64,000 bases of DNA from Amphiscolops sp. MND2022 (lineage: Eukaryota): positions 7,628,001 through 7,692,000 of the forward strand of contig OZ076409.1 of the NCBI GenBank assembly GCA_964187785.1. Direction: 5' to 3'. The position numbers and the translations under genes are program-made. The notes under the pieces were generated by a model, which worked only from the letters and a program-made list of their open reading frames with translations, was not told the origin of the DNA and made no database searches. Positions 14,943 through 42,000 of the stretch are shown piece by piece. Each line of letters begins with the position of its first letter. Position 1 is the stretch's first letter.

Positions 14943-16051
14943 TAACAGTCCACAAGAAGTCAGTCGCACCAAACGCTGAGCTAAATGACAGAAATAGCAA
15001 GCAGTGATGCGTATGAAAAGTCAATAAAAACTCACTTCAGTCAGCAGCTGAAATATTGAAATGGAGCGAAATGTTTTGATTAGTCATTTTTGTATCGAAA
15101 TAGTACTGGCTTGTAGAATGTACATAAGTTTGGCCCACTGAAACACTTTCCAACAGGAAATAACCGTAAGTTGCTTTTTGTTTTCAACTACTTTGTTTTT
15201 TATTTGTTCCTTCGCGAGTAGATAGTTCGGTGTTTTTGAGCCGTGAAAAAGAATAGGAAACGAAAAGACCAGGACTCAGTTTTCCTCGCGGAAAACGACT
15301 AATTTCGTCCACCTTCATTTCCCTCTATTTCATTTAAAACGCTGTTTGATTTTTGTAGGATCGATCATGTTTCCCTTTTCAGGTCAGTATTTTTAAAATG
15401 TCTTCAACAAAGTTTTTGGTCAACAACAAAGTTTTCATCGTAAAGATACCAAAACGTTTTTCGTTTTCTGTAACCTATTAAGCGCTGATTGACATTAGAA
15501 AACGGAGTCTGGATATTTCCTAACTGAACTCTTTTAAAGATTCGATGACCTAGTTGTCGTAGAAAAACACATCGTAGAAAAACTAAAATTTTAGCTTAAA
15601 GAACGCTGAGTCTGAAAGTGCAAAAATTCAGGGTGAAATGGGGTTTCAGGGTTGGGAGTTTATTGCTCACAACTTGTTTAGAGACTATTTAAAACCATTT
15701 TAAAGCTCAATCCCAACAATGGCGCTCGCTGTCTTTGAGTTCATTTTATTCGAAGTAAGAAAACCATGTGAAGCTACTTCGGCGCTTTTTTCAATACCCA
15801 TACCTTCGGTGCTTTCAAAAACCCAGTGTTCCATAGTCCGTCAGCGTTTCAGTTCGACTATAGTTTTCGAGTCACATGAAACAGTTGATTATAGCAGGCA
15901 AAAATGAAAGCCAAAATCCATTTCACATTGACTATTCATAAATCTGCCCCTCGTTTCTGAAACAAACTAGATACCTAGATAATTCCAAAATTGAATGTCA
16001 CACTGTGGATAAAAACGTGTGTCAACTTTCCTTTTTTGTGAAATGTATGAC

Positions 16052-17674: not shown

Positions 17675-18910
17675 ATGACAACCCAAAAGCAGGACGTCTG
17701 CTGTTTCGGAGACGTGCTTTGTCACATTCGGCGGAAAGTAATACATGTTTTCTAATAGCTGAAACTCGTTATATCATAATTACTGTATAAGGAAGAAATC
17801 TACAGACATGGAATACTTCGGACAAAAGTCGTCTCAATCAAGTGTTGCATCTCAACAGAACAGTTTCAAATACTGTATTCATGTAACTTCTAGCAAAGGA
17901 ACTTCCATGCTAGAGCTGAGCTGGGACAGTGCTTAGGTTGCCTGGACAGGAACATAGTCTATACACAAGCCTAAACACTAGTTTCTCTTCCGAAAACGGT
18001 CTCCTGGGGGACTTCTGTAGCGTCGAGGAGACTTCTGATTTTGGAGCTCCGTGGTGACATACTGGAACACTTAAAGTCCAGAAACGTCCCACAAGCACGT
18101 AAAAACCGTTTTCCAGGTTACCTGAGACTTCCTACATTCCGAGGTCCAAAGGTGACAATTATCCGAACTACTTTTATTGGCTACCCTAATCGAGATTGCT
18201 TGATTTTCTTACATGCTGCATGGGAACATGCATGCTAATTGTTTACAAAATTCATGAAGTATACATGGAAAAGTTTTGTAGAATTATAAAGCAGATTCCA
18301 CATTTTCAATTACAACTCAAAAAATTTCCACTTCTTCACCGGCGCGATCACTTTGTTTTCACGCATAAGTTTCTCAAGTAAGAAACTGTTTCAATAACAG
18401 TCAGTCAAATTGCACGCTGAATATGACGTTGCTTTGAAACAAATGATGTGACTGAAATTTACTTGCATTGAAATTGCGATATAATTAAAGAGGTATCAGC
18501 GGTTGTCAAAATTAGAACGGCGTCCTGATGAACCCTGCATAACGCCGAGTCTCGGAATAGCCGCCAAATTTAAGACGCTTTTTATAGGCAGTCTGATAAA
18601 ATTAAATCGAGTAAATTTTCATAAGAATTTGATAAAGTCATATATTTCCAGAAATCTGAAAAATAGCTCAAACATAGAGAGTTCTGTCGGCAAAACACTG
18701 AATCAAGATCTGAGCGCGTCCTTGATCTGCGGAACAGTCTATGCGAGGTATCGAGTATGCCAAAGTCCATAACTCCGTTGCTGAAATTTTGATTTCATGT
18801 ACCTGCCAAGGGTTTCATGTTGTACGACACGTTTCGAATTTTCAAACACTTTCTGGTAGGTGCTCTATCACCAGGCTAAGGACGTTACATCACTCCTTTG
18901 TAACTCAAAC

Positions 18911-20681
18911 TGTCGCCGGGCTTCCCCTGCGAGATGTCCGGAGTGCAGCATCAATGATCAGTTCAACTTGCTCCTTCCTACCGTCTGAGACCCGAAGATC
19001 CGAATCAAATCATCATCAGTGTACAAACTTCAAGAACAATTGAAGTTACTTAAACTGAGATAATTGTTTTGAATGTTTGTTCTTGTTGCTATTTTCTTAG
19101 CATTCGTTTGTGTTATAATGTTCGTTAATGTTGAAGCGGACGCCTTGTTGCCTCCACTGATTTAATTAAAACAGCGGTTCAACCGTTGGCAAATTGAAAG
19201 AAAAAGAAAAAAACTTTGATCAAATAAATTAGTCTCTAGTGACAATGTTACTAGTTGACCCAAGCCGAGCCTTTATTTTCACTGCCACTTTACCTCATAA
19301 GAGTGTACTGTAGTTTGATTTAGCTTTCAAAATAATAGAGCATTTGTAGCAAGACTATGTAGGAAGCTTTCATAATCAGCATGATGAATTACCCATGAAA
19401 CAGCATACCGTGCTCATACTTCTTTTCATAGACAGTTTATACTGCTTTATGCAGTTCTTACTAAGCCACATATGCGGCTTTTGCTAAAAAACAGTATGAT
19501 GACTACATACGTGCGGATAGTTATGCTACTTACCGCATTATGCGGAAGTATTGTAAAAACATCATGACGACTACATCCGTGTACACGTTTATACTCCTCA
19601 CCGCATTTTGCGGAAATATCTCGAAACAGCATGATGTTTAATTCATAATTAACATAATGAACAGCAGTGGAACAGTACCGATGAATTATACTGCATTATG
19701 TGGTTTCCATAAAACAGTACAAATGCGGATATACTGACAGAACGTCATAATCCGCATATTGCTTCTACAGTAATTTACTGATGTAGCTGTGCTATATTTA
19801 GACCTTCTAGGGGTATGACGTTATGAATTATTTTTAATCCCTGACCCTTGAAACATGGCGTTATGATGATTTGTATAAAATTGATTGTCATGCTACTAAA
19901 AATACCAACCAATAGAATCATTCGAAGCGAGTCCCTAAGAAATCAATTTTCCCCACATTCATTCGAAAAAATCTCACGCAGAACACAGTCACTCAATTTC
20001 ACAAACTACCCACAGTCCTCAAACTTTGCAGTTTTCTTTCTTTGTAAAGATAACTTCCACGATTTCATTTCACCAAAATATTTTTGTAATTCAAAGATTT
20101 CTACACTCAACACTGTTTTCATCATGGGAAATAAAAGAAATAGACGTTCAAGAAGGATAGAATCCCAGTCATCAGACAGAGAAGAGAATACTTCAGAAAC
20201 AAGCTTCACTCAAGGTAATGCGACTTTAGTTGATGTTTCTGAAAATGGTAATAACATTTTTGACAGGAACTTAGGTAGTGAACTGACAGAACCTTCACAA
20301 ATCAGCAATGAAATAGAAGTAATATCCCAGAGATTGTTTGAACAAAACAGTAACAAGATGACGCAAATTGAACAGCAACTGAATAGTAAATTCGAAGAGA
20401 TACTCAGAGAAATTAGAACAAATAAAGAAAGCAATTTGGCAAATGATGGAGAGGATGCCGAGAACAATAGGCCAGGTCCATCTAACTCGGAAAATAGAGG
20501 TCTCAGGAGTAATCACGCATCAAATACAACACTAGACAGAGACAAAAATCAGGATGATCGGTTTTGCCCATCTGAAATGAGTGAATTAAGACAACCGTAC
20601 ACACCACTTGGAATTGCTAATGAGACACTAGACGAAACTATCATTATAAACGAAAACAGACAGAAAATGCCGATCATCACA
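18911..20681 (+). repeat. 5' LTR of element B
   Basis: Matches 33813-35584; TGTCGCC...ATCACA. Confidence 0.95.
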
Positions 20682-20694
20682 TGGTGACTGGACC
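20682..20694 (+). promoter_or_regulatory. Primer-binding site of element B (TGGTGACTGGACC)
   Basis: Directly follows the LTR end; TGG is complementary to the tRNA CCA. Confidence 0.8.
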
Positions 20695-21780
20695 TACCAA
20701 GAACATCCTGAGACAAAGCTTTACTAACTCTAACACAACAAAAAAAATTGGACCACACGCAACAACTCTTCTCGAACATCCTGAAACATCAGACCCTGTC
20801 AGCCAAATTGCATTAGCAATTGAAAAACAGGCACGAAAAAACCCAGAACCCTCACTCTATCACCCGAAAAACACACTCACCTTTAACGGTAAATCAGAGA
20901 AAAATGAAAAGTTTGAATACTTTGAAAATCTTTTTCACACCACACTCAAGATGCAACCTCATCTCACTGAAGAGATGAAAATAAACCATTTTCCAGCCCA
21001 TCTCAGAGGACTGGCGTTAAAAACCTTCAAAAACATACAACGCACACCTACCACAACACTTGAAGACATCTTGGTAGTCTTCCGCAGAAAGTATGTCAAG
21101 CCTGAATCTAGTGCTTCAGCCAAACATAGATTCAACAGGCTTATGTTCCAACCCGAAAACCGGAAGCTGCCCGACTTTCTTGAAGATTTACAAGAGACTG
21201 CTGAAAAAGCATTTGGGGAAGCAGCGCCACAGATGATCGAAAGTCTCATATACGCAAAAATGTCTCCCCATCTAAAGAAATCAATCAACCAAGCGTACCT
21301 TGAGAATGGTACCTACGACCAAATTGTACGACACTTAGAACGCGAAATGGAACTCAATGGACTCGAAGCAGATGAGCCCTTAGTCAAAACACAAATGACA
21401 GCTGTAAAACAGCAAACTAACACACAAAACAATAAAAGTTCGACACAAAACACAAAACCTAAAACCAAAACTCCCAACACAGTTCCCAACAACACCCTAC
21501 AAAACAACCAATGTCGTTATTGCAAAGAAGAAGGTCACATGGCGAAGGAATGCCCAAAACTTGCAAGACGGCAAAAACTCGATAACGACCCAGACGCACC
21601 ACGATGCTCCCATTGTAACACGACAGGACATGAAGAACCCAACTGTTACTTCGGAGCTAACATGGAAAATTGTCCACCCAAATGGACACTGACAGAAAAT
21701 CAACAAAAACTCATTGACGAGTATAAAAAATCAAACAAACCCATCTTTCCACGAAACACGAAACCTTCAACATCGAAGGA

Positions 21781-21787
21781 TTTAAAC
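21781..21787 (+). other. -1 frameshift slippery site U-UUA-AAC (element B)
   Basis: Immediately before the gag TAA; the -1 frame is open into the 21856 ORF. Confidence 0.8.
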
Positions 21788-24700
21788 TAATAAAGCCACG
21801 CCTTCAAACAGAAACACCACAAAAACAACACTCTACTGATGACTGGCAGCATCAGTTGAGCCCCAAACCAACAAAAATTACAGTCTTTGATCATAAAACC
21901 AACAAAAACGACTCTCACACTACAGACACATCAACTACAAATCCAGATACTCAAACGGAGGATCTATATGACCTACTCAAAGATGCTCCTGATAACTACA
22001 TCCTACGACAAATCTTTGAACCTGCAACCGAAACAGAAACACAAAATCAACACCCTAACACCACACAACCTCAAGAAACACAAACTGACCACCTAAACAC
22101 ACAATCCACATCAACAACTCAAACCGACGAAGACGTCACTTCAGAACTAACTAAAACTCTCTTTTGTGCATCACCTGGAAAACAACCCCTCCTTGATAAT
22201 GATGGTTTCAATCATCTAACCACAGATGAAGGCAATAACATCTTGTCCTTGAACCTTTCTACAAACCTTACACTCAAAAAGAAACGTCATATGTACTATT
22301 TCCCAATGGATTTCGAGTAACTAACCCTGGATGGACTCATAGATACAGGCGCCTTAACAAGCGCAATTTCAGAAGCTGATCTTAATAAAATCAAACTTAT
22401 ATCAAATGAAGCAATCAAAGACACTGGCCCAGCACCTAACTTCCAAATTATGGTGGCAAACGGTCAACTTGAACGCCCCATTGGAACCGTCCTCCTCGAA
22501 TTCGAGGTAGCAGACTTCCAATTTCAAGAGGATTTCATAGTAATGAAGACACTACCCAACCCACTCATAGGCCTGTGCTTCCTACAAAGACACAACGCTC
22601 TTTTCGATATTCGACAAGGAATTATTACATTCCCATACTTGTCAATGCAACTGCGTCCCGAACACACAACAAACACCCGAACAGCAACACCCTTGCTGAC
22701 TGAAACCACTTATACCTTACAACCTGGAGAAACTCTTGCAATCTCCAGCAAAATGCCACACTTGATAGACCACAATGCAACAGGAATTGTTACTCGGTCA
22801 TCACACATGGAGGAACATGAGAGCATTTTCATTACCTCATCATTAAGCACAGTCAACAACAACGCAGTGGGTTACCAAGTGATCAATTTCTCGGATATGC
22901 CCTACACCCTTCCAGTGGACATACATATGGCAGATTTCCGAGTTCTCACACCAGAACAAATCAAACACATCAAACCAGTTGATCCATCAACCCTCACCTT
23001 CATGATGCATCAACATATAGAGAACACCGACCTTTACCTCAACCAACTGATGAAAACAAACCATTCATCGGATGAACAAGAAATGTATTGGTTCCCGACA
23101 CCTGAACAACCTGGGGATCCAGAAACATACACGCCCATACAAAAACGAATTTATGATGAACTACTAGAGCTCAAACAACTTGAACAATTGAACCAAAACG
23201 ACAACGCACAATCTAGAAAGCAATTCCTTGACCATTTCGACTGGACCGACACTACCCTAAGCCCATTCGAAAAACAACACATTGAAGACATTCTGGTGCA
23301 ATACCACGATATCTTTGCCAGACATCGGTTTGAAATTGGCACCAATAGAGAATTTAAGGTTAAATTGACTCCTAATGATGATAGGCCTGCCTACAGCCAA
23401 AGTCTCCCTACACCAATCAACCTCAAGGACGACATAACTGTTGAACTAGCCCTACTTCATCGTTATGGAATCATCACAACTTTACCTTTCTCTAAGTACG
23501 CAAGCCCTATCTTTGCCCAGAGAAAACCAAATGAACGCCTTCGTCTCCTGGTAGATCTGCGCAAAATCAACAACCTCATCACGCAAGATTATGTAAACAA
23601 CAACCACCCAATTAGCACATTGTCAGATGCTGCACAGCACATGGCCGGAAAGAAGCTTTTTTGCAAACTTGACTGCTCACAAGCATACCATTGTTTGCAG
23701 ATGGCCGACTACAAGTCAATACAAATGCTAGCTTTCAACTTCGCAAGCCGAACCTTTGCATACAGACGCCTTGCTCAAGGTCTTAGTCGTTCATTATCCG
23801 CTTTCTCTTCCTTCATGAGAGAATATCTAGACAAGGCCATCAAAGCTGATCAGTGTGCACAATACGTTGATGACATTGGTATAGGTGCGAACGATTCAAC
23901 ACAACTCTGCATCAACATCGAAACAGTCTTTGAATGCATCAGAAATGCAGGACTTAAACTTACAATGGCTAAATGCCATTTTGGTGTCAAACAGGTCGAC
24001 TTTTTGGGACGAACAATAACCCCACAAGGAGTCTCACCACAAACCGAGAAAGGCAAACAATTTCTTCAAAAACTCAAATTCCCAAAATCCAAAAAAGCCC
24101 TTCAAAGGTATATTGTATTCCTCAACTATTACCGAAACTACATCCCTCGTTTATCAGAGAAGCTGTCGCCTTTCATCAAACTACTCAAAAAAACATCACA
24201 ATTTTGCATACCAAACACTGTTTTGGACACATTCAAAGAATTAAACCAACAACTGGAGAAATCATGCAACCTTGCTCTCAAACAACCAATACAGAACAAA
24301 CAACTCATCCTGATGACAGACGCAAGTTTCACAGCGGCCGGTTATGCCATCATGATTGAAGATGATCTCAACCAAAAACTCCAATCTCGAAGGAAAACCT
24401 ACGCCCCGATTGCGTTTGGCTCAGAAACGTTCAATCCAACACAACTCAAAATGTCAATTTACGCAAAAGAATTCTTAGCAATTTATTTCGCGTTTTCCGA
24501 ATTTGGACACCTTCCCTGTTATAGTTTTCACAGACAACCGTTCAGTAACACGCTTCTTCCAAACAAAAATAATACCACCACCCCTCTGGAACGCCTGTGA
24601 CTATGTACTGCAATATAACTTCGTCATAGCACACGTTGCAGGAGCTATGAACACAGCAGCCGATTTCCTTTCAAGAGCGGAAGTAAACACGACTGAAAAA

Positions 24701-26757
24701 CTCGAAATGAACATCCGAAATGATGTTGCAACCAAAGCAATCGAAGTCAATATTCAGTCCACAGGAGTTGCTGAGGAAGAAACTCTCTACATCCTTCCGG
24801 ACGAATCCCCCACGGAACAGCAATTGTGGGAAGAGAAAAACACAATACGCTCTATGGCAAGAACGGAAACCCACAATGATCCAGAAAACGTAGTGTCAGA
24901 ACTCCAAACTTTCCATAAACCCACAGCGGGCACAATCAATTACCGCGAAGGGCACTTCAAAGACAACGCCAAAATCCACTTGGAACAAAACAATGACCAA
25001 GTACTACGCAATCTCCGATATAAACTTGAAGGCGAACCTTACGACGAAACAGAGTTTACGCAAGATTATCGCTACAAACACTATTTACAAAATATTACCA
25101 GAATTGAAATCAAACAAGATGTCCTAACACGAAGATACTACAATGATACTGGGATGATATCACATTACCAGATACTCTTACCAAAACAACTACTAGAAGA
25201 ATTCCTTCATGCACTTCATGGACATAACGCAAATCATCCTGGAATAACAAAGATGATCCAAGAAGCCCGGCAGAAATATTACTATCCCTGCATAGCCAAA
25301 TACATTCGAACTTGGGTCACAAAATGCCAAATGTGCATACAAAACAAACGGATCAATAATGACCTCCTCAAAACCGAACTACTGAATTGTCCTGAATGGG
25401 ACCTAGGTCCGGAAGATATATTGCAGATGGATATCCTTCCGAATCTTCCGCCAAGTGGAGGTTACGACAATATAATCACAGCAATAGACGTGTGTTCACG
25501 CTATCTGTTTTCATATCCAGTTACAAGAATTACTGCCCCAGCAGTAGCAAAAGTCATTATGGATATCTTGTGCAAACACACATATCTACCCACAACAATC
25601 ATTACAGATATGGGCACTCAATTCAACTCACAGGTTACTAAAGAAGTTGCAGCAGTTCTAAACATTGAACTCAAACACGCAACGACAAAACATGCCCAAA
25701 CAATTGGATTATTAGAACGTACCCATGCATCGGTTAAAGCGCATCTTAAAGCAGCCACTGGAGAATTCAGAAACAACTGGCATAAGTTTCTGCCATTGGC
25801 AGTCCTGAACCATAATACAACCTACAATGCAACACTTGGTTGTGAACCTACACGGGTCTTCCATGGAAGAATCCCGCACAATATACTTGATTTCAAACTT
25901 GGGTACAATCCAAACCCTAGATTTCAACCCCAAACTGAAGTAGCAGAAGAGGTACAAAGACGGATTGCATTACTTCATGACCAAACAAAGAAAAACATTA
26001 TGCAATCTTACCTCAAATATAAAGCATACTACGACAGGAAAGCAAAAGCAGCACCTCTCACAACAGGGGACTATTGCTTTATCTTGAATCCGAAAGCAGA
26101 CACACAGGCGACCAAAATACCCTTCAGAGATTTCCGCTGGGTTGGCCCTTATAAAGTCGAAAAAGCCCTACCGAATAACAATTACATTGTTCGTCGATTG
26201 GGCACAAATAAAACCCAATTGCTTCATCGTATACGACTACGTATATACATTCCACAAGCACCTCTAGCTGACAATTTTGTCAGAGAGTCTGAATGGCAAA
26301 AAGAAGATACACTTATTGCTCAAGATGACCTATATGCCCACACTTGGGACACAAATTTGGATCGAGCCCATTTGACACTGACCATGAAATTATTGATCAG
26401 CAAGAAGATATGGTAGAATACGAACCTGCTTCTCAACCTGGAATAAACCGCCCTCCCTCCCCTGATAATCCTCAAAACAGTGGGGGGACCCCATCAGAAC
26501 AACCTGCTGTGACCGACAAAGAACCCCAGATAATTGATGAAACCATTACAAGAAATGAAAATCAAGAGCTCATACCAGAAATTTCAAGAAATCCAGAAAC
26601 TTTCCAAGAAATACCAACCCAAAATTCACCAAAAACTCCCGAAAATATCCCAGAAATTGATGCACAAGAAACACAAAAAACAGTTAACACGAGAGGTGAA
26701 AAGTACAACCTACGCCCGAACCCTAACCCTAACTACTCAGACTCATACAGATACTAA
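21781..26757 (+). pseudogene. pol: Pol of element B (PR, RT, RNase H, integrase), with a stop at 22318 and frameshifts near 24510 and 26355
   Basis: LIDTGA, YVDD, TDAS, HHCC (HGHNANH...CQMC), integrase D,D,E core, C-terminal KYNLRPNPNPNYSDSYRY. Confidence 0.93.
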
Positions 26758-27032
26758 AAAAGACAAAATCAAGAGACTCAAAGACTTTAACTAAATACAG
26801 TCTCTGTTTATCTTTTGCTCTCACATCTTTTCTCTTCATTTTTTCTTTCCCAATCAGTTACTTCAGTAACCGTTTTGAGAATTGATTTACTGGAATCAAC
26901 AATACTAACTAAACCAAATCAGGTGTAATCAACCTGAAGCAAAGCAAACAAAGTATACAAAGAACAAAGCAACAAATAAAAGGCATACAAGCAACATCGC
27001 AATCTATGGAAACAGTAACAACTAGACGTCTC

Positions 27033-30000
27033 TCATTTACCACCGGGAGATGGTCTCTTCTTTATAGACAGTTTCTTCGCAGACTTAGTCTGATCAGGGG
27101 GCAGAAACGGAACCTCGCTGACAAAGCGCGGAACAGCCAAAGTAGCAGTAGCCAATTGCAGAGTCTGATCGAAACCTCTTGATGACCCACCGGAAGGCCC
27201 AACCGGGATTGGCCCTGGAACAGCAAGGTTCGAACTGGGTAGAGGAGTCTTGGGCGATTTACTAGTAGAAGAAGTGACCCGATCAGTTGGCGAAGAAGAA
27301 GTTGAACCAGAAGGTTTAGGATCAACATCCAGAGAAGTCCATGCCCTTTCTTCATCAGTAACCGTGCAGGTGAAACGGGACTCAAATTTATTCTGTAGTC
27401 GTCGTCGGCGAGAAGAGCAACTGGAACTAACGTCCCAAACAGAATAATCGGGAATTTCCAGCAAACTCCTCCCTTTTCCGAGCAAAGAAAAAATAGGGGC
27501 AACAGTTCTAGGATTGGAAAATAACCCTAAAACGTTGGGAATGCCGACCAGAGAAGACTGAACACTCCTAACTGCAGAAGTAAAATCACAGTTGTCAGAA
27601 GCCAAGTCAGGTAATGCAACGGTGAAAACAGGTGGAATGCAAATAGAGCTAGAAGTTCCAAGACAACACAATTTGAATACAGAGAATAAATTAGTGCGAC
27701 ATTGGAGCTCATAATAACCGGACATGAAGGTAACCCAGTCTGTGTCGTACTGTACTTCGCAAGACCTGAACTTCTCAACAAAAGACCGGTACTCACTCAG
27801 GATGAGTGGCTTGATGGAACTTGATATCCAGTCCCGTTGTATGAGGAAATCGCACAATTGGTCTGATTCTTCTTCGTAGTCCTCCTCCCGCCCATGTAAT
27901 ATCACAGCTTCGTCGAAAACAGACATTCCTCGGATAAGCTTCGACTTACGGATGCTGTGTTTCAGGAGCAAAGTACATAGACTTTTATAAAAACACAGTG
28001 CTTGTTCGACGAAATGAGTTGGCGTCGGTAGGTCACTCTTATTGACTAAGTCGGCAAAGTCTTTATTGCGAAGAAAATCAGTGACGCTTTTGAAAAGAAG
28101 ATCTGAAGACAAGTCGATAGATAAGAATCGGTCCCAGTCAGAGATGTCCCCCAAGAAAGAATCTGACAAGATTGTCTGGAGCTGACTATACACAAATGTG
28201 GCGTAGGAGCGACTCCTTTGAAAGCCGATTGGTCTGAAGCATTTCCAGATTAAGAAAAGGAATCAGACATTAGAAGAATGGAAAAAAATAGAAAAAGGCT
28301 AACAATGAAGAAGCACATTCCGTACTAGAAACAACTTGGCGGGATAAGTCTTGTCTTTAAATATCGTCTCATCCAAACTTTTGGGCTGAAACATCAAAGT
28401 TTGACCAATAAAACTATGTTAGAACAACGATATCTGCAATTTCGAAAACGAATATTACCTCTTTCATGTGGTACTTGAAAGCCTTGATCCGGTCAGTGAG
28501 ACGGAGATAAGCAACCACATGATGCCAATTCTGGTACAGTTCTCCAAGAAGAATAGCGCACTTGTCATAACTGTATTCGAAGCTACAGATCGCCTAAAAG
28601 AACAAATTCATGCCTGTGAGAACTAATAGCATTGGAAATGAACTCAAGACATGACGCATTATGATGTCTTCCGAATACAGTATAGGATGCTGAACAGCAT
28701 ACAGCATAAGATATGCGGACTATACGGATTAACCGTGAAACCAGCATAATTCAAGAAAAACAGTATAAAAGAATAAATCACGCTGTTTTTGGAAGAAAAC
28801 AGTATAAAAGAAATAATGACGTCGTTTTGGAAAGAAACAGCATAGAAGAAAAGTTCATGCAGTTTCCGGAAAGAAACAGCATAGAAGAAAAGTTCATGCA
28901 TTGTCCGGAAAGAAACAGCATAGAAGAAAAGTTCATGCGGTTTTCAAAAGAAACAGCATAGAAGAAAAGTTCATGCGGTTTTCAAAAGAAACAGCATAGA
29001 AGAAAAGTTCATGCGGTTTTCGGAAGAAAACAGCACTAAGAAGCATCCATGCGGTCTCCGTAAAGGAGTCAGCATAGAAGAAAGGTTTATGTGGTTGTTG
29101 GAAGAAAACAGCATAAAGGAATACTCATGCGGTTTTCGAAGAAAACTGCATAAAGAAGCACCCATGCAGTTCCCGTAATGGAAGCGCATAGAAGATGTGA
29201 TTATGCGGATTTCGGAAAAGATGGCATAAGGAAATACCCACACTACAAGCAGAATAAAAACAGTATAAAGATAAAATCTATGCAGTTTGCAGAAAATAAT
29301 GACTATGCGGAGTAGCAGCGTAATGAAACGAAGAAACTACGGTCAAGATCCAACAAAATATGCGGTAATATGCGGTTTTCTGAAGACGTCTTAGGGGTGT
29401 TAATTACAACTAGGAAGGGATATAATAATGGTTAAACAATGCAAATGCTTACTTCTCGAAGCTCCTGCAAGTTGTTGAGCCAAGCTGATCCCAAAGCTGT
29501 CCGGAGTTTCATCAAATGAACGTGTAAAACGCTGTGTATGTCATAGCGGTCCAGGATTTTGATACATGGGCCTGCGAGCATCTTGTATAGATCTTCATAG
29601 CCGAAAGTAGCAACGATGCAAATGGGTGTGGATTGGTCCAGCTCAGTAGTCAGTGTTTTACTGACCCGCCCATCGAACCCGAGCAGAGAAAACACAGTGG
29701 GTGGATTACTTGTAACAGCAAGGAAAGAAGAGATGGCATCGAGGACTTTTGGAGCTGTTTGAAGACTGTTGGGAAACTCGGAAAGGCAGAGACTATTATA
29801 CACATTCCCAGACCAGAAGGCCAAGTTGACCTGAGCAACTTTAGTCGAAGAACTGATTTGAAGGGAACACAAGCCCCGCTGACCAATAGATGTGGCTGAA
29901 TATCGTAGTAACTCGTGAAACATGTAGACGAGTATCCCCTGTGAATCATATGAATTAAATGTATGATAAATAAATGTCCAACTCAGTCAGATAACGAAAG

Positions 30001-31325
30001 ATACTTACGAAAACACGTTTCTGTCTCCAGTCGTACTGTGGGAATCTAGTGAGCCCCTGTGGCTCGACATTCAAATTGGACAAGAGTGAAGGTAATAGGT
30101 CCAACTCTCCGCCAGATTGGAGTCCTAACAGGAGAAGCCTCATCTGGGAGCATGCTACTGATGAAGGATCAAGAATTTCAGTGTCTTTTGGCAACTCCCT
30201 CTGTCCTGGCAGCAGGTGACATTCGCTCAAAGTTGGAGTGATTGGAAACGTCTGCTCAGCTTTTTCCCGAGCTTCATCTAGAGCAACTCCAGTTATCTCT
30301 CGCTCATTTTTGTCATAAAGTGGAAGTCCTGGCGTTTCTAATCTAATTCGGTGCTCTCGAACCAAGTGAGCATCAGTACGGTAGTGCGATAGAATTTCGA
30401 GCGATCCTTTCGTTTTTAGAGACAATTCTACTTGGCATACTCTACAACGCCACTTGTGAGGATTCTCGTTCGGGTCAGCCGGGCCTGTGACAAAGAATTT
30501 GAACACGGGATGTTTTTTATACATCTGAGCAGAAAGTTGCATTCGGGGTCTTGGTCTTTTGCTAACCACAACTTGTTCATCAGATGTTGTTTGGACCGGG
30601 TCAGAAGTTTCAGTGTTGTATGAACGCCTGAGAGAGCGTCTTTTCCCCGGAGATGTAATTGGAGTCCGTTCTGCGGCACTACGTCGTTGATTTGTCCGTG
30701 TGGATTCACCTCCAGAAGGGCCCGTTGTGGGTTCAGATCTTTCAACAGCGTGCGCAGACAATGATTGCTCAAGCTTTGTACTGACAAGAGTTTCAAGTCT
30801 CTGCTCCAGTGCCTCTAATTCGGAACTTGTAACGAAATTACCAAATTGTGTTACTGGGAGCGATTGAGCATTAGTAGCTGGTTCTCGGCTTTCTTGCTCG
30901 GCGGAGGCTGTTACTGCAAGTTGACCGAAGTAACGTGTGGCTGGGGAAGTTCGAGAATGGATTCCTTCCAACATAGGAGTAGTCGCCCGTGAGGAACATT
31001 CATCAGGTAGAGTTCTTCTTTCTCCTGCAGGAGCGTTTGGATTGGAGCAATCGGGTTGCTCACCAGTCACATCAAGAATGAGATGAAGATTAGAATCGAT
31101 GGAAGTGGCAAGGAAACTAACAGGTTCTTTGAGACTTGTCATGCTGTGGTCAAACGAGTGTTTGATCCCGTCTTGGTCAAGAGTTACGTTAACAGTTTCA
31201 CAGAAAGAACGCTCTGGTTCAGGGGTAGAATGATGAAGGGGAGCAACAGACGTCAAAACCGTCAATTCGTTGGAAGTTGTTTGTCTCTGGTGAGAGGATT
31301 GAGAATCGGTATGAGCTGGAACACA
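27033..31325 (-). CDS. Antisense spliced accessory gene of element B (BED-like Zn-finger, hAT-transposase-like)
   Basis: Exons about 31300-30009, 29938-29453, 28593-28459, then about 28385-27033 with a probable further intron; GTAAG donors and CAG/TAG acceptors. Motifs WRCRVC...KTKG..EIL.H....H, L.EL...W..V..YL, GMSVFD, FKLCCL. The start and the last junction are uncertain. Confidence 0.72.
28830..29020. repeat. About 38-bp tandem repeat (GAAAGAAACAGCATAGAAGAAAAGTTCATGCGGTTTTC), roughly 5 good copies plus degenerate copies over about 28700-29380
   Basis: Visible tandem units inside intron 2 of the antisense gene; no unique spacers. Confidence 0.9.
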
Positions 31326-31997
31326 TAAAGAATTGGAAATAAAGATGACAAAAGTCGATGAAAATCAACCTGAAAACGGATGTTATCCGACTAAATTGTG
31401 GGAAAGTGATCACTTCCTACTTCGAAATTAGAGTTAACTCGAAAAAATTGTTCACAACTTGAAACAGAAAGTCCGAAAATGGACCTGTGGAGAGCGGATG
31501 TGAAAATAAAATTTGTTCAGCGACGGAAACAGGAAGTCTTCAAGCGACACTTGTGAAAGTCCAATATGAAACCAAATACCGAAATATTTTCATCCAATAA
31601 TTAAAGGTTGGAAATGTACAAACCTTGTGTTGGCAAATCGGTTCCTTCCTTGCAGCCAGACATCGCTTCACCCAGTGGATCCATAAGATAAACTACACAA
31701 CGCTGTAGTCGATTGCAAAACAAAGAGTCCGTGAAAATGGCAGTGTTGGGAGAACGAAAACCAAGTGAAGCTAATTCAGAATAACGAATCGGGAAGTCGA
31801 AATTGGATAATTCAAACGAGAAATGTGAGAAACTAAAGATGACGGAACTATAAATGACTTGAAGACTCTGAAAATTGTAAAAACTACGAAGACTGAGATT
31901 TAATAATGTAGATTGAAATTATCAAGAAATCAAAATTATCAAAGCAGCTGGAAACAGAAGGCGTGGCAGTTAACGAGAAGGCAATAAAGCAAATGGA

Positions 31998-32041
31998 TGA
32001 CGTCACTAATGGAGTTTTCAGTGTATCTCAAATCTGATTGG
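31998..32041. promoter_or_regulatory. CRE-like TGACGTCA and CCAAT box (CTGATTGG) in the divergent spacer between the antisense gene and ORF3
   Basis: CTGATTGG-like boxes occur in the equivalent spacer of A (2024), C (51070) and D (about 54315). Confidence 0.4.
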
Positions 32042-32911
32042 TCGAGAGCAAGTATTCAGTTTGGCCATTTCTGCCAGAATGACTAAATTGGAGGAATCCA
32101 TACCTTATAAGGAAACTGACGGACTTTGCGTATTAACACGCAACACGCTGCTACATTGAAAGTGCACTATGCTGTTCTGCATTAAAAACAGCATAATGGT
32201 GCAGCGCTATCGTGAACAACAATGTGTTATGGTATAGAGAAGAAAATGTAACAAGGAAGCATAATGGGATTATGCGGAATTTAAAGTGAAACTGCATAAA
32301 GTGTTTATGCGAAAAACTATCAAAGACAACATGGTGAAGTAATAACGGCGATATGAGAAATTATGATGCATTATGATGTTTTCTGTAAGCAGTTTATGAT
32401 GTGAATCACTACTAATACTGCTGATTTGAATATTACACACCTACTAGTGAAAGAAAGAAATTCCACAATTTTGAGAAAGATGATTCATACAACAAAGTGT
32501 GAAATCTTCACATGATTAATCTGAATGGACTACAACCATGATCTATTTTGATGATGAGTAATTAAAATTCAGTTACCCTATATGGGGTAGCTACCGGCAA
32601 TATATGAAAGAAACTCTGAAAACCAACAGTTATTGATGATCAATTAAAGAAACTCGATGATGCTAGATTTCCATAAATTATTTGATAATTATCCTAAAAC
32701 CCGGGAAAAGGGTGACGCGAAAATGTGTTGGAGCAATTTATATAAAACCCATAAACCTATAAAAATCTAGAAAACTTCACCAGTTTGGTCTTAAATTTTC
32801 TGAAAACAGCTGATCTTCGCCTTACAACATTCTAATCTTGTAGCAATTCTTGATTTATAATTGAATAACAATTTGAACCGTTTATACCAATTGATTTGAT
32901 AAAACATAAAA

Positions 32912-33859
32912 ATGGACAGCACACCTGTTGGAAAAAACAACAACACGAGGAACCCAATGTTAATTGACACAGCATTGGACTTAATAAATATCTCCAGTAG
33001 CTCTGAGGAAGGATTTACGGTGGAACGTTTCTCCTTGCCCGAACTAGAAGATAGGTTCAGAGTTGCACCATCATCGATCACGAACATGCCAACTGCTTTC
33101 ATGGGGTCGGCAGAGGCCTCATTATTTGTGACCAATTCAGTTGATGCCAGGTCAACAGGATGTAAAGACACAAGAGGAACGTCCATTGAAACTGAGCTGA
33201 TGGACCTACTGAACGACATACCGGATATTTCACCCACAACGTTCATTGATACCTCCGACAAAGAAAAGAACCCCTTCCCAGAGGCTAATTTCGCGAATGT
33301 ACAAAGGAACGCGTATGGTCGCCCTACTCAGAGAGTGTGCCCTATGCCCAGACAGCAACAAGAGACGCAACCTCTTAATGCCAACCTACCAACTATACCC
33401 AGCCAAACAAGCGCTTTTACAGCGTATACAGCACCACAGCAGAGAACAACTGACCCGAATCCTCGTCCTACACAGCAAGCACAGTATTTGCCGATGCCCA
33501 TCCCGTTCTACCCTAATGCGTGGAACAATATGGGATATGGGACATTGGGCCATAATATGCAACCACCACCATCAAGCAACGTTCCCGCCCATAACGGAAC
33601 CTTGTTGCAAATGAATCTTCCAGTCATGCCCGAGGTCGCAGGTTCTTGCCCAGGTTGCACTAAAACCTATGACCAAATTGCAGTAGAGACATTGACCAAC
33701 TACGTTGCTTGGTCCGAGTATCCTGATGAAACAATCCGCGACAGAAACGTCAGATCAAGGGCTTTTGTGGACGGATTTGGAGCTGCGTTAATCTGCTTCA
33801 AAAATGCTGGACTGTCGCCGGGCTTCCCCTGCAAGATGTCCGGAGTGCAGCATCGATGA
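32912..33859 (+). CDS. ORF3 of element B: 315-aa accessory protein of unknown function (SIM-like motif, P/Q-rich linker, C-terminal CxxC domain), overlapping the 3' LTR
   Basis: Intact ATG-initiated ORF. The C-terminal block aligns without gaps to ORF3 of C (CxxC.K/R.S/T.D.I..E....Y...S....E.......R..AF/Y..G). Confidence 0.75.
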   Translation: MDSTPVGKNNNTRNPMLIDTALDLINISSSSEEGFTVERFSLPELEDRFRVAPSSITNMPTAFMGSAEASLFVTNSVDARSTGCKDTRGTSIETELMDLLNDIPDISPTTFIDTSDKEKNPFPEANFANVQRNAYGRPTQRVCPMPRQQQETQPLNANLPTIPSQTSAFTAYTAPQQRTTDPNPRPTQQAQYLPMPIPFYPNAWNNMGYGTLGHNMQPPPSSNVPAHNGTLLQMNLPVMPEVAGSCPGCTKTYDQIAVETLTNYVAWSEYPDETIRDRNVRSRAFVDGFGAALICFKNAGLSPGFPCKMSGVQHR

Positions 33860-35584
33860 TCAGTTCAACTTGCTCCTTCCTACCGTCTGAGACCCGAAGA
33901 TCCGAATCAAATCATCATCAGTGTACAAACTTCAAAAACATTTGAAGTTACTTAAACTGAGATAATTGTTTTGAATGTTTGTTCTTGTTGCTATTTTCTT
34001 AGCATTCGTTTGTGTTATAATGTTCGTTAATGTTGAAGCGGACGCCTTGTTGCTTCCACTGATTTAATTAAAACAGCGGTTCAACCGTTGGCAAATTGAA
34101 AGAAAAAGAAAAAAACTTTGATCAAATAAATTAGTCTCTAGTGACAATGTTACTAGTTGACCCAAGCCGAGCCTTTATTTTTACTCCCACTTTACCTCAT
34201 AAGAGTGTACTGTAGTTTGATATAGCTTTCAAAATAATAGAGCATTTGTAGCAAGACTATGTAGGAAGCTTTCATAATCAGCTTGATGAATTACCCATGA
34301 AACAGCATACCGTGCTCATACTTCTTTTCATAGACAGTTTATACTGCTTTATGCAGTTCTTACTAAGCCACATATGCGGCTTTTGCTAAAAAACAGTATG
34401 ATGACTACATACGTGCGGATAGTTATGCTACTTACCGCATTATGCGGAAGTTTTGTAAAAACATCATGACGACTACATCCGTGTACACGTTTTTACTCCT
34501 CACCGACTTATGCGGAAATATCTCAAAACAGCATGATGTTTAATTCATAATTAACATGATGAACAGCAGTGGAACATTACCGATGAAATATACTGCATTA
34601 TGTGGTTTCCATAAAACAGTATAAATGCGGATATACTGACAGAACGTCATAATCCGCATATTGCTTCTACAGTAATTTACTGATGTAGCTGTGCTATATT
34701 TAGACCTTCTAGGGGTATGACGTTATGAATTATTTTTAATCCCTGACCCTAGAAACATGGCGTTATGATGATTTGTATAAAATTGATTGTCATGCTACTA
34801 AAAATACCAACCAATAGAATCATTCGAAGCGAGTCCCTAAGAAATCAATTTTCCCCACATTCATTCGAAAAAATCTCACGCAGAACACAGTCACTCAATT
34901 TCACAAACTACCCACAGTCCTCAAACTTTGCAGTTTTCTTTCTTTGTAAAGATAACTTCCACGATTTCATTTCACCAAAATATCTTTGTAATTCAAAGAT
35001 TTCTACACTCAACACTGTTTTCATCATGGGAAATAAAAGAAATAGACGTTCTAGAAGGATAGAATCCCAGTCATCAGACAGAGAAGAGAATACTTCAGAA
35101 ACAAGCTTCACTCAAGGTAATGCGACTTTAGTTGATGTTTCTGAAAATGTTAATAACATTTTTGACAGGAACTCAGGTAGTGAACTGACAGAACCTTCAC
35201 AAATCAGCAATGAAATAGAAGTGAAATCCCAGAGATTGTTTGAACAAAACAGTAACAAGATGACGCAAATTGAACAGCAACTGAATAGTAAATTCGAAGA
35301 GATACTCAGAGAAATTAGAACAAATAAAGAAAGCAATTTGGCAAATGATGGAGAGGATGCCGAGAACAATAGGCCAGGTCCATCTAACTCGGAAAATAGA
35401 GGTCTCAGGAGTAATCACGCATCAAATACAACACTAGACAGAGACAAAAATCAGGATGATCGGTTTTGCCCATCTGAAATGAGTGATTTAAGACAACCGT
35501 ACACACCACTCGGAATTGCTAATGAGACACTAGACGAAACTATCCATATAAACGAAAACAGACAGGAAAATGCCGATCATCACA
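33813..35584 (+). repeat. 3' LTR of element B
   Basis: Matches 18911-20681; followed by TSD CAAAC. Confidence 0.95.
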
Positions 35585-36000
35585 CAAACTTATTGATGTT
35601 TCTCTTCTGTTCTCTGTGGAAGAAAGCACAATGGAGTGTACGAAATCAGCAAAAAAACAATATGTTGCGTTATCCTTACGAACGACTCTAAGATGACCGG
35701 GAAAGCCTTTCGAGTTAGTAAAGCTTGGGGCCCATTGCCTCTAAGCAATTAAGGTACAATGTCCGAAAAGTAGTATTTTTGGGATTTTTCACAGAACTCT
35801 TCTTTCGGTCTGTAAAAATTACAAACAAACGCGTAAAAGATCACAAATCTGAGGTCTTTACAACCAAGTTACCAAACAACTTTGCTTCCAGGTACTAGAT
35901 ACTTTGGTGCTAAGAAAAATCATTAGAAAAGGGAAAACAAGTTCAGAGATGCAATTTTTCGTGAAAAGTGGTATATGCATTCCAACGCAACTTGAATTGG

Positions 36001-36519: not shown

Positions 36520-37912
36520 TGTGGCAGGCTGCCGCCTTGACGGTACAACAATGACGACCCCAGCTGAAGGACAAGGGATCATGCCAGGCACTTTGCCTAC
36601 TTTCTAAAATTGGAGACCGAGAAACACTTAGTTAAACTGGAATTCATCCCATTTTACATTTATACATTTTTTTGCTATAATTAGATACTTTAAAACGTTC
36701 AGTTATTAGTCTGTCAACATACAAATTGAATTGCTCAAGATGAAGTTTGGATTAGTAAAACTTTTCTAAATTTGCAATGTAAAAGTGTATGTAAAAGACA
36801 ACTGATTAGCAGTATAAGAAACGTGTTCAAATGTGAGAATGTACTATTCCGACAACGTCACTTGCGCTCGTTGTTTGGACCAATCACGTTTCGCTATTTG
36901 CTGCACTTAATGTATTTATACTAATGACCGAATAAGGCCCTTTGACGCTGCTACTCTATACCTAAAAGGGAAGCTAGTCAAACAGCATGTTCAGGCTATT
37001 TGTTACAATGTATCAAAGCAATGTTAATCTCCCACCCAATTAGTTGCAGATGATGATTTTAGTACTTTTTATATTTTAACCTATACATTAGTTGCTATTC
37101 CTTGACGCTCAATTTTGACAGATTAGTCCATGTGTATTCGTTGAATAAATATCCCAAAGTGCTCATGTGTCAAGTCGCCGGATTAGGCTAATTTCAGGTT
37201 AAGTTATTTGATGCGATGATGTTAAGTCACGGTGAGTAAGAGAACCTTTTAGCCGCACGTAAATACACGTGCCCACCAAGGAATGCAATTTCAAGATGCG
37301 CCTGATTTTCTAATAAAGTTTTACAATCAGGAGTTCTTGCTGCCTGCTACTAGAAAATAGAAGAAAGCTAGAAAATCTAGAGGTGCAGAAAAGCTACCTG
37401 ACATCGAAAATCTAGATATCATGTTGCGAGGTAACCATTTAGAAAGAGAAGAAAGTGAATATGGTAGCTTGAGTAGAAGGTCAAACAGCCCTAATTTCAA
37501 TGTCCATGAAAACAATGAAGGAATTCATTGCCCTAATCCTATGGAATCTAGATCGAGTAAGAGTGCCGAATACGGCCACAGTTCTGCTGCACTGTTTCTA
37601 TTGCTGAATTTACTAGGCTATCAGGGGAACCTAACCTGAGAATCTCAAGAGAAAAGGATGAGATGATGAATAGCGTCAGTGTTCAAATCCAAAGGTTCAT
37701 TATTGATGCAATAAGTAGTCAGGTCTTACCGCAAATCCAGAATGCTCTTAAGACTGGATCTGGATCATTGACTCAGAATGGATGGAACATCCCGACTGGG
37801 AGACAGGAACGACATACCGAGGACCATCCTAGTCAGAAAGTTAGGAGTAGTTCTAGAAGTGAGCCAGTCCGTACCCATCCTTGTGACGAAGTTACATTCA
37901 ACGCTCATGACA
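36520..37912 (+). repeat. 5' LTR of element C (lacks about 300 bp present in the 3' LTR)
   Basis: Aligns to 52139-53839 except for 52930-53225; ends CATGACA. Confidence 0.9.
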
Positions 37913-39056
37913 TGGTGACAGGAGACAACGAATCTCCAGTTCTGGTTCCTGAGTTTCTGACGAGACGAATGCCATCCAGAACAGCGCTCAACCAATCTCA
38001 CATTGATCACAATCCCTTGCGTGATACAACCATCCCAGCACAACAAAGAGCCAAACCCGTAGCCGAACAAGACCCAATCAACAGACTAGCTGACGTCTTG
38101 ACCAGCATGCAGAACCGAACAACAGCCCAACAAAAACTCACTTTTCGTCCGGTCAGTTCCAATACAAAGACCTTTGATGGCAAGAGTGAGAAGTTTAAGC
38201 TGTTCGAATATCTCTTTCACACCATGATCAAGATGTAGCCCAAAATGTCTGAACAAATGAAAATCAATCACTTCCACTCGCTCCTCAGGAAAGGAGCGCT
38301 GCAAACCTTCAGAAATATCAATACAATTAAACGTGGCAAACACTCCAGTACGTCCTTGTAATATTCACACGCAAATATGACAAGCCTGAGTCACAAGCGA
38401 CAGCGAAACATAAGTGGCACAGACTTGTCTGTGACCGGAATGCATTAAAATAAACAATTTTTTTGAGGAACTAAACTAAGGAGCCAAAAAAGCATTCGGG
38501 GAGATTGCGCAAAGTATGATAGACAGTGTCCTCTATGCGAAATTACCTCCAAAACTCAAAAGAGCGGTCAATATGGCCAGATTAGAAAACGGCTGCTATG
38601 ACGAAATTGTGGCCCACCTCGAGAAAGAATTATGGTTCAACGCGCCTGAAGAGTCAGATGACCTACCCATGGCAAACATGATTCTTCTACTTCCAAGCAG
38701 AAGAGCCTTCTCTCCACCGGGCTATATCTGACTTTACCTGCAATTATTGCAAGGAAAAGGAACACATGGTTAAGGACTATGAAAACTTAAAAAGAAGAAA
38801 CAGAAAGATGCCCTAAAAATGCAAACCACCGTCTCAGAAGAAGATCTACCCTGAGTGTGGAACTTGTGGCAAGAAAAATTACTCTGAAGAACGATATTCG
38901 CAGGGCGCAGGAGCGCATCTCAAACCTAAACGTAAAAGGCCTGAAGACTCATCGGACAACAGTCCGGACTCCAAAGCACAAAAATCACAACATAACTCAA
39001 CATCGACTGACTCCCAGACCACACCCAAAAAGAAAAAGGACGGCTCAAAAAACTAT
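37339..39056 (+). pseudogene. gag: gag pseudogene of element C, starting in the LTR
   Basis: Fragments ...AHDMVTG...FDGKSEKF.LFE.LFHTMIKM and MIDSVLYAKLPPKLKRAVN are homologous to B gag. Many stops and frameshifts; A-AAA-AAC slippery site at 39047-39053. Confidence 0.85.
37913..37924 (+). promoter_or_regulatory. Primer-binding site of element C (TGGTGACAGGAG)
   Basis: Identical to the first 12 nt of the element A PBS; directly follows the LTR end. Confidence 0.8.
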
Positions 39057-42000
39057 CTTCGCCACGACTCCAACACAACGATCTGGTATCAGTTCGACAA
39101 AGTGTCAGATCTGATTCTCCAACAAATGTATTCCACGAATATCAACAACAATTGTTGGGTGTCCTTCTGTTGTCTGACAGCAACAGATGGAAAAAGCAAC
39201 CCTCGTAACATATAACAACACTCATTTGTACAAAAAACCAACTCCAGTATGGGATCCTGATTTTACCACCAGCTTTCCTCAACGATTCAGGCCCATTCTC
39301 CTTTTTGATGACTATAACCCAACGTATATCGATCCAGATTATGGCAGGGATCGCTATTGGGACACTTTGATTCACAATCAAGACTTGCTGCAATTTCAAC
39401 ATGTACTGGACGATATTGAACTCTATAACAAATCAGTCCACGAAAATCCACCTATAACTCATGACAAGAAAACAAGGGCACTCGACGTCTCAGTCATTAT
39501 TGGCTATAAAGCAATTCCAAAACACCCTTATCGCCAATGATGGTGAACCAGACTGTTTACCACTCTCTACCAACATCAACTTCAAATCCAGGAAACGCAT
39601 TATGTATTTCCCGATGGACTTTTGGAATTGAGCATCGACGGTCTAATCGACAATGGGGCATTATCCAGTGCGATTCCTGAAATGGACCTGAAATGGACAA
39701 TCCGTTTACTCTCCCCACAATAAGGTATCCGGGAATGTCCGCCTCCTCCGATTTTTCAAATATTGGTCGCTAATGGACTATTAGAAACTACTAAGAGTAC
39801 TACTGAACTGAAATTTGAGTTTGATGACATTGAATTTCATGAAATTTTCAGAGTAATGGAGAACGTGACAGGACCGATGATCAGGCTCCTGGTCCTTCAG
39901 AGAAATCACACAGGTCTGGATATGAGACAAGGCATTGTGAATTTCTCATTTCTCTCCTTGCAGCTCAAATCAGCTGAACATCGATACTCTAATGTTCTTG
40001 AGCCGATATTTAATCCAACCGAAGTCACCATTCCGCCCAATGATAGAGTCCTAATTAGAAACCAATTCGCTACTCTTTCCGTAGAATATAGTAACTGGCA
40101 TCCTCTGGCCCTGTGACTTTCTGCATGAAGATGGTGACATAACGTTTAGCCCGGCTTTTGTCACATTGAAAGAGGGCAATATCTAAATACCAGTGAATAA
40201 TTTCACAGATCACCCTTATGAGCTCAAGAAGGGACTGCACAATGCTATCTTCTCGTTCATGACACCGGAACAGATGAAATATGTCAAACCGGTCGATACA
40301 ATTTCAACTTGGCACTTTCTACAAAATGACCAGGAACAAGCAGCACACTACGTTAGCAGTCTCATCAAAACAAATAAAAATACGCAAATCTCTGAAAATT
40401 ACTTGTTCCTTACACCAGAAAACCCTGGAAACCAGAGGAACGCACGCCCGTCCAAAAAAGAATTCTGCGTGATTTACACGCCCTACGGGACCTGGAGGCC
40501 CTTGATCCTACCAAAGACAAAGACTCTAGGACAAAAGTCTTGGCAAACTATGACTGGAAAAATTCAACGCTTGCACCTGATGAAATATAGAGAATCGAAG
40601 AACTACTAGTAGAATTTCTCGATATATTTGCAAGACACCAACTTGACATCGGCATGAACGAAGAATTCAAGGTGACACCGTCGCCTAAGGACGATTCCCC
40701 AGCAGATAGTCAAAGCTTTCCGTCCCCAAATAACTTGAAGGAAGACATACTGGACGAACTGGCATTGTTACATAAATATGGCATGTTCACATCACTTTCG
40801 TTTTCAAAACATGCTAGTCCAAAATTTGCACAAAAAAATCCAAACGGGAAACTCCGACTACTGGTTGACTTTAGAAAAAGCAAAATCTAATATCGGACGA
40901 TTATATAAACAATAATCATCGCTTAAGTACCCTAACTGACGCTGCCCAGCATATGCCCGGGAAAATGCCCTTCTGCAAGTTGGACTGTTCACAAGCCTAT
41001 CATTGCTTGCCGATGGCTGACCAACGCTCAAGTGAAATGTAGGAATTTAATTTTGCCATCCGCATCTTTGCATACAGATATTTGGCAGAAGGCGTTAGCA
41101 GGGCGCTATCCGTAATCTCAAGCTTCATGAGGGAATATTTTGACAAAGTCAACAAGGTGGACCAATGTGCTTGAAATGTGGACGACAATGGCATTGCAAC
41201 GCTGACCACCTCATTGCCAACCTGAGAGCAACTTTTAAATGCATTCAGAAGGCAGGCCTTAAACTACCGATGCACAAATGTCATTTTGATGCAACAGAAA
41301 TTGACTTCCTTGGACGAAGGCGTCAAACCACAAAAGCAAAATGTACAGAATTCCCTTGAGAAGACCAAATTTCCGAAGTCGAAAAAGGCTCTGCCACGCT
41401 ATTTGGAACTCTTAAACTACTATCGAACTATTTCCCAAGACTGTCTGAACGCCTAGCCTCATTCTACAAGATGCTTAAAATTGACGAAAAGGTCCTAGTA
41501 TCTAAAGAACTGGTTCAACAATTTGAGGAAATCAACAAAGCACTAGACAAATTTTGCAACCTAGCTCTTCAGCAACTTCCCAACAAGCAGATCGCCCTAA
41601 TGATCGATGCAAGTTTCTCTTCTGCAAGATATGCGGTACTTAAAGAAGATTACCCGAATCAGAAATTTACCTCATTCTGCAAATCATACGCACCGGTGGC
41701 TTATGGATCAAAAACCTTCACTCCGGTCTACGTAAAATGTCCATTTATGCCAAACAATTTCTTGCAATTTACTTCGCTTCCAAAGAATTCGGACACATTT
41801 TCTGAGGAGCGCCTAAACCGGTTATAATCCTCACCGACAATAAAGCCGTGACTCGATTTCTTCAAACAAACATTGTACCGCCAGCCCTGTGGAACGCATG
41901 TGACTATGTCATTTATTTCAATTTTGTCATAGCACACATCCCAGGAGCACGAAACACGGCCGCGAATTATCTATCCCTTCTCGAGTTGGATCCGAAAAAC

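Follow-up and report, generated by a model that had tools for sequence, protein, structure and literature searches.

The same short motif recurs in the LTRs of element B, a retrotransposon in the window (the whole 64,000-nt stretch of DNA analysed here), and in an intron of the gene that B carries in antisense. This co-occurrence had been proposed from a sequence-only reading of the DNA; it is supported here and is independently repeated, with a different motif, by the neighbouring element A. For a self-recognition system resembling those of VANC and TnpA in an LTR retrotransposon, in which an antisense-encoded BED-like protein would bind the motif of its own element, we judge the chances to be about even.

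Structure of element B and its antisense gene

Element B (nt. 18911–35584, forward strand) is a member of the Ty3/Gypsy LTR retrotransposons and is full-length, as seen from its LTRs, target duplication, PBS, and gag-pol order. The left target-site duplication, CAAAC (nt. 18906–18910), matches the same five bases at nt. 35585–35589. The 5′ LTR (nt. 18911–20681, +; 1.77 kb, TG...CA) shares 98.3% identity with the 3′ LTR (nt. 33813–35584, +), with motif clusters at nt. ~19356–19760 and ~34258–34660, respectively, and is directly followed by the PBS (TGGTGAC, nt. 20682). It also holds the first ~550 nt of gag. The first few hundred gag bases lie within the LTR in B (nt. 20124–20681), C (nt. 37300–37912), and A (nt. 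10384–10711), and because the LTR includes the start of gag, the PBS falls inside the gag reading frame in all three elements. No clear polypurine tract was seen upstream of the 3′ LTR of either B or C. The gag-pol region of B (nt. 20124–26757, +) encodes a CCHC knuckle, protease, RT, RNase H, and integrase (Pfam and the ORF list), the domain order being gag followed by protease-RT-RNase H-integrase, as in Ty3/Gypsy (Pfam); stops and frameshifts interrupt it in this copy.

The antisense gene and a divergent sense ORF follow between pol and the 3′ LTR, and the spacer that separates them (nt. 32050–32910) has tail-to-tail dyads at nt. 32169 and 32272. The sense ORF (nt. 32912–33859, +; 315 a.a. 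in the ORF list) contains a C-x2-C motif, has no Pfam match, and weakly resembles the same-placed ORF of C (E 0.094). The C-x2-C sense ORFs cross the start of the 3′ LTR in both elements (nt. 51793–52227 in C). We also noted clusters of words that we take to be CCAAT, CRE-like, and YY1-like, located upstream of the antisense genes or close to the ends of LTRs (nt. 32010–32060, 54300–54330, and 11120–11170).

The antisense gene of B comprises six predicted exons and five introns, all on the reverse strand. Exon 1 (nt. 31624–31684; 61 nt, with a predicted ATG) is the least certain; its phase fits exon 2, and no homologs support it. Exon 2 (nt. 30009–31315) is represented in 32 homologous clusters (90% identity) and encodes a variable low-complexity N-terminal part, a basic KRPRPR stretch, and then a C-x2-C...H-x5-H finger (nt. 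~30300–30550); among its homologues, the finger is nearly invariant and the N-terminal part variable. Exon 3 (nt. 29453–29938; 19 homologous clusters formed at 90%, 52–96% identity) carries a conserved FD(G) motif and is a candidate RNase H-like core, an assignment made from the sequence pattern and not derived from a tool. Intron 3 (nt. 28594–29452), which contains the motif array, has a GTAAGC donor and an AG acceptor, and homologous ORFs diverge at the same donor. Exons 4 (nt. 28459–28593) and 5 (nt. 28304–28385) have AG/GT ends, are in phase, and are matched by the homologues P0100 and P0104 at 76% and 90–93%, respectively. The last exon (nt. 27033–28233; 56 homologous clusters formed at 90%) encodes a helical, hAT C-terminal-like region and a low-complexity tail.

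The first five exons together show AG/GT ends, continuous phase, and no stops. The junctions are supported by database ORFs: homologues of exon 2 diverge at the exon-2 donor, P0006 and P0015 continue across intron 2 into exon 3, and the frames of P0100 and P0104 run on from exon 4 to exon 5. Compared to P0054, P0057, P0058, and P0062, the final exon here shows a break in frame close to its 5′ end, and this copy is therefore probably dead.

Motif sites in B and its neighbours

A 38-bp motif array had been claimed at nt. ~28700–29380, in intron 2. The array was confirmed by TRF (nt. 28757–29157, 10.4 copies, 79% matches), and this core of 38–39-bp tandem repeats is accompanied on both sides by looser half-sites, such that relaxed matches extend over nt. 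28675–29380; the intron number was not upheld, as the intron is the third when the 61-nt first exon is counted. A 121-a.a. ORF across the array (nt. 28971–29336) was rejected as a gene, being repeat-derived and within an intron. Also rejected was the array as a copied piece of LTR, the best LTR match being 30 nt or less. Intron arrays and LTRs have the motif in common but no block of sequence, so the arrays arose separately.

Exact matches to the two motifs named in the sequence-only reading number 20 (AAACAGYAT) and 25 (YATGCGG) on both strands of the window. Of these 45, 35 lie in the 4,091 bp of non-coding sequence of B (both LTRs, intron, and divergent spacer) and none in its 10,964 bp of coding sequence, with the remaining 10 elsewhere in the window; the dispersed recurrence in both LTRs and the spacer thus held, and the enrichment of non-coding over coding parts is far beyond composition. 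The 3′ LTR and spacer of B alone have 10 matches in 2,022 bp, and 45,931 bp of sequence outside B have 9 (p 2e-11, Poisson), a comparison not fully held out, since the motifs were picked by a reader already shown the LTR. A weight matrix trained on the intron found 13.8 sites/kb in the 3′ LTR of B and 8.1/kb in the spacer, compared to 0–1.2 sites/kb in the other 10 regions scanned.

The enrichment of AAACAG(C/T)AT and (T/C)ATGCGG therefore stood, but their status as two motifs did not. Reversed, AAACAGCAT reads ATGCTGTTT, which is the identical half-site to ATGCGGTTT; both motifs are one half-site, ATGC(G/T/A)G, on opposite strands, and each repeat unit is therefore an inverted pair. A tail-to-tail arrangement over 25–27 nt is common to the intron, LTRs, and spacer of B, and a search for such pairs gave 16 matches, all in the non-coding parts of B, with a pattern written after the data had been seen. 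The spans obtained with the intron-trained matrix were 24, 26, 27, and 34 in the LTR and 27 and 27 in the spacer. Head-to-head gaps varied (intron 13, spacer 9, LTR 1), and when dyads were scanned for without bias, the pairs of B emerged only in the intron, with none in its LTR or spacer alone. The geometry of B is thus the loosest of the three clear cases. This loose spacing counts against self-recognition.

Element A (nt. 1–12582, −) repeats the layout of B, with sites in the LTRs and an array within an antisense-gene intron; its dyad is GATG-N7-GATG and is found in the LTRs, the intron array, the upstream region, and gag-pol. Forty-nine of the 50 matches in the window lie inside A (33 on one strand and 16 on the other), including 12 and 15 in its two LTRs. 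With one LTR counted, GATG..GATG at a gap of 7 occurs 37 times in A, compared to 0–2 times for each of the other 20 gaps (range 0 to 20), and it occurs once in the remaining 51.4 kb of the window; all 37 gap-7 sites differ in sequence. The same dyad occurs in a separate 69–70-bp array in an intron of the antisense gene of A (nt. ~4060–4430), whose finger (nt. 4540–4782, +) is related to the others in the window. Seven dyads fall in pol, six of which spell D-x-x-x-M in linker regions, compared to a mean of 0.76 in synonymous-codon shuffles of A pol (p 0.0005). In these pol linkers (nt. 5733–9200, −), the choice of amino acids seems to be influenced by the DNA motif. We also observed an internal deletion in A at nt. 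5700–6200, by which the integrase core and the end of the antisense gene are gone, with the LTRs still 98.7% identical.

A third dyad, GGAC-N5-GTCC, marks the lone LTR E (nt. 16052–17680, +), which holds all 10 matches for GGAC..GTCC at a gap of 5, with none elsewhere in the window, and is without an attached antisense gene. Several of these palindromes are ~100 bp apart; E also contains repeated TATTTAG-like words, and no matching target duplication was seen around it. The stretch between A and E (nt. 13640–14950) contains several copies of a degenerate ~180-bp repeat with GGACCCTTTG-like words.

The remaining two elements offer less. Element C (nt. 36520–53839, +) is old, with LTRs 90% identical, and has a homologous antisense gene (nt. 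~47000–50600, −) but no array and no significant dyad, with 3 CCG-N4-CGG sites. Its pol contains a 2.96-kb tandem duplication (96.5% identical, nt. 39431–45348), and its 3′ LTR a 296-bp insert (nt. 52930–53225) repeating a 32-bp promoter-like box. Element D (nt. 53840–64000, −), the LTRs of which are outside the window, also has a homologous antisense gene (nt. ~54900–59200, +) and dispersed CCG-N4-CGG sites (9 vs. 1.0 expected, corrected p 3e-3), a weaker signal than those of A and E. The suggestion that other elements use different motifs is consequently clearly right for A and E, weakly so for D, and scarcely so for C, and the same division applies to family-specific motifs in non-coding parts and tandem arrays (A, B, and E; weak in D; not in C).

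Exact gaps with variable spacers, in both orientations, point to sites for a paired DNA-binding domain, and it is very probable that two fingers simultaneously contact each dyad as double-stranded DNA. The alternative that the motifs act in RNA, as packaging, export, or splicing signals, would suit their location in the introns and LTR-proximal regions of a retroelement; we give it a very slight chance, given that the dyad of A is present in both orientations (33/16) and the half-sites of B on both strands, which fits double-stranded DNA. Neutral minisatellite turnover, by slippage or template switching in unconstrained parts, has a precedent in plant Retand elements, with tandem arrays in 32/63 clusters (PMC11963269). 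Set against neutral turnover, the dispersed non-tandem sites keep an exact gap as their spacers differ, the intron and LTR are without block homology, and sites persist among pol codons as well as across diverged subfamilies. For A and E it is already largely refuted, and its chance overall is the slightest of the explanations weighed here.

The antisense protein and its possible hAT ancestry

The antisense genes of C and D encode the same protein family as that of B. A last-exon profile recovered 398 representatives (50% identity), fragmentary in many cases; those looked up were unnamed ENA proteins, and no relatives were found in metagenome or viral contigs. Comparison of the antisense frames of C and D (pS 0.71–0.92 and pN 0.18–0.37 over six in-frame blocks) indicates that the family is under purifying selection. 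B, C, and D carry the gene at one position and in one orientation, as does A judging by the finger, which argues against the chance insertion of a nested hAT transposon. In relatives with exon 3 57–73% identical to that of B, read-through into intron 3 spells the motif qualitatively as the peptides KPH, YAVF, MLF, and KTA. Such traces occur in about half of 17 distinct intron-3 tails, the other tails being short, and the relatives with these traces belong to a group with a near-invariant finger.

The finger is BED-like in pattern, with aromatic residues and C-x2-C...H-x5-H present in all four window fingers (A, B, C, and D); the zf-BED matches (Pfam) were below the cut-off in three (E 0.03, 0.48, and 1.2) and absent for A. 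The fingers of C and D (the latter at nt. 56398–56625) are 34–38% identical overall to that of B and are alike in the putative DNA-reading loop and helix. The finger of A displays 23% identity to the family, and A is without the last exon; having lost both this exon and the integrase core, A is tied to the family by its finger only. In the model of a folded relative, the finger (residues 11–100, pLDDT 81–92) forms a beta-hairpin and helix, and fold searches with it yielded no more than weak similarity to various types of zinc finger. The ESM Atlas returned Dimer_Tnp_hAT (0.86), FAM200/GTF2IRD2-like (0.84), Spin-doc finger (0.87), and zf-BED (0.87), scores that are all below 0.9 and are treated as leads only.

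Outside the finger, the AlphaFold models are poor (mean pLDDT 44 and 52). The part following the finger, the candidate RNase H-like region, is under 50 throughout, so that fold searches are uninformative on an RNase H-like fold there; what these searches returned was unspecific, namely helical or zinc-finger folds (Z at best 6.2 and 5.0; lowest Foldseek E 1.8). No Pfam hAT match was found in the 51 + 71 proteins scanned, including PF05699 in the 71 members, and profile searches of PDB sequences (40- and 71-row profiles) returned nothing relevant. Judged by eye, the finger is followed by a helical segment, then three strands, FDG, helices, and a final F-x(9)-R-x-x-L-x-x-x-F-K-L block, an order that we take to be that of a hAT transposase.

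Of the D-D-E triad, with positions placed by sequence pattern, the first Asp occurs in 1/51 distinct sequences and the second in 47/49, and an ERxFS-like Glu motif is absent after the conserved KLCCL block. The antisense protein thus does not appear to have the D-D-E residues of an active hAT transposase. The window gene further differs from hAT elements in apparently being without flanking terminal inverted repeats or an 8-bp duplication, in not keeping the candidate first Asp and Glu motif, and in sequence matches that stay below threshold. Judging from the sub-threshold matches and the domain pattern, we consider descent of the antisense protein from a hAT transposase to be probable.

Candidate binders and a proposed self-recognition system

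The binder is somewhat more probably than otherwise encoded by the element and identical with the antisense finger protein. A and B differ in both finger and motif, and the relatives of B keep both; covariation of finger and motif would thus rest on this single clear contrast. Two observations tell against self-recognition: the fingers of C and D are B-like, yet both elements are without the motif of B, and E has dyads but no attached gene.

The first of these also speaks for host transcription factors, the main rival for the binder, with the dyads acting as enhancers tuned per family and the antisense protein doing something else. CCAAT- and CRE-like boxes occur near the antisense promoters, and repeated host-factor sites are common in LTRs. 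Such a reading must also accommodate an unrelated dyad in each family that is almost absent from other elements and intervening spacers, sites along the whole element, including pol linkers, and a finger protein encoded in every internal region of the window; we think it unlikely, with an appreciable chance of being right.

An element-encoded binder might instead come from the divergent sense ORF (or be Gag/integrase) rather than being the BED-like protein. B and C each have a C-x2-C ORF entering the 3′ LTR, that of C with a weak Spin-doc finger match (E 0.021), and these ORFs change fast (E 0.094, B vs. C), as a specificity factor might. We allow it a slight chance, as no matching C-x2-C ORF was found in the corresponding region of A despite the strongest dyad.

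With the antisense finger protein as the binder, its effect could still be to repress the element (copy-number control) or to serve integration, which overlaps with our preferred explanation in the binding step. Among host proteins derived from hAT transposases, several act as repressors or cofactors, and the sequence would fit an effect of either sign. The many sites are easier explained by a cis benefit to each copy, and VANC and TnpA activate; repression or integration is accordingly given a small chance.

What an activating protein might act against is suggested by transitions between duplicated copies, which affected 33/258 CpG compared to 15/307 GpC sites (p 0.0013). This excess was absent in one of the five pairs (4/28 vs. 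8/45), and it makes host methylation a plausible opponent.

Our full proposal is that a Gypsy clade captured a hAT transposase and inactivated it, and that its antisense BED finger co-evolves with a family-specific dyad in LTRs, introns, and pol codons as the element's own anti-silencing factor. We put this forward tentatively, as a scenario somewhat on the doubtful side. The captured transposase, having lost its catalytic residues, would be kept as a spliced antisense gene, and its BED-like fingers would bind the family-specific dyads of their own element in pairs. In the main reading, given about even chances above, binding along the LTR, spacer, and intron would coat the element and keep the genomic and antisense promoters open against CpG methylation, creating a positive feedback, and tandem amplification in introns would be the inexpensive means of gaining sites once specificity has changed.

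Among the closest known parallels is VANC21 of Arabidopsis VANDAL elements, which binds a short motif in introns and terminal regions that is amplified by tandem repeats (PMC5735166). Shared features are an element-encoded protein, a short family-specific motif enriched in intronic, intergenic, and terminal non-coding sequence, and tandem amplification, including in an intron of the regulator gene (PMC5735166). VANDAL is, in contrast, a Mutator-like DNA transposon with a single 9-mer in one orientation, for which binding and demethylation have been shown (PMC5735166), whereas the window elements are LTR retrotransposons with two-part motifs and a BED-like finger, known here from sequence alone. 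Regulators of the Spm TnpA type were derived from transposases by loss of catalysis (bioRxiv 10.64898/2026.08.24.746577) and share sequence-specific self-activation by a catalysis-lacking, transposase-derived protein, which is a proposal in the present case. They remain in a DNA transposon or are domesticated by the host, whereas here the regulator would be captured by a retrotransposon; the available text of that preprint does not mention retrotransposon, LTR, or Gypsy.

Retand elements carry tandem arrays without known function between pol and the 3′ LTR (PMC11963269) and resemble the present elements in being Ty3/Gypsy with a lengthy stretch between pol and the 3′ LTR, an antisense ORF with predicted DNA binding, and family-specific tandem arrays for which a regulatory role has been proposed (PMC11963269, PMC7264820). 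Their antisense TRP28 ORF encodes an unrelated domain (PF04195), for which we found no Pfam match in the window or the family proteins, the window gene has five introns, and the available text of the Retand papers does not connect the motifs of the arrays with those of the LTRs (PMC11963269, PMC7264820). In Hermes, BED domains bind a quasi-palindrome in pairs, with exact phasing needed (PMC10368747); the window protein, with its BED-like finger toward the N-terminus, would resemble it in binding repeated and precisely phased quasi-palindromes two at a time.

Among the papers listed in literature searches, none appeared to describe a hAT-derived or BED-finger gene carried in antisense by an LTR retrotransposon, or a motif-binding anti-silencing factor of such an element's own, although repeat libraries (Repbase, Dfam) may contain elements of this kind. 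Motif self-recognition that keeps an element on has so far been shown, in the literature searched, only for plant DNA transposons, where sequence-specific self-activation is established for VANC, TnpA, and AtMu1. The retrotransposon family described here links self-activation with two features of LTR retrotransposons so far without known function, their accessory antisense genes and their tandem arrays. The proposal is directly testable, as a single window offers three clean protein-motif predictions and the family has hundreds of diverged members. If true, a retrotransposon would have taken over the enzyme of a DNA transposon as a regulator, a capture across classes, and hundreds of natural finger-motif pairs would form a library for the DNA-recognition code of BED fingers.
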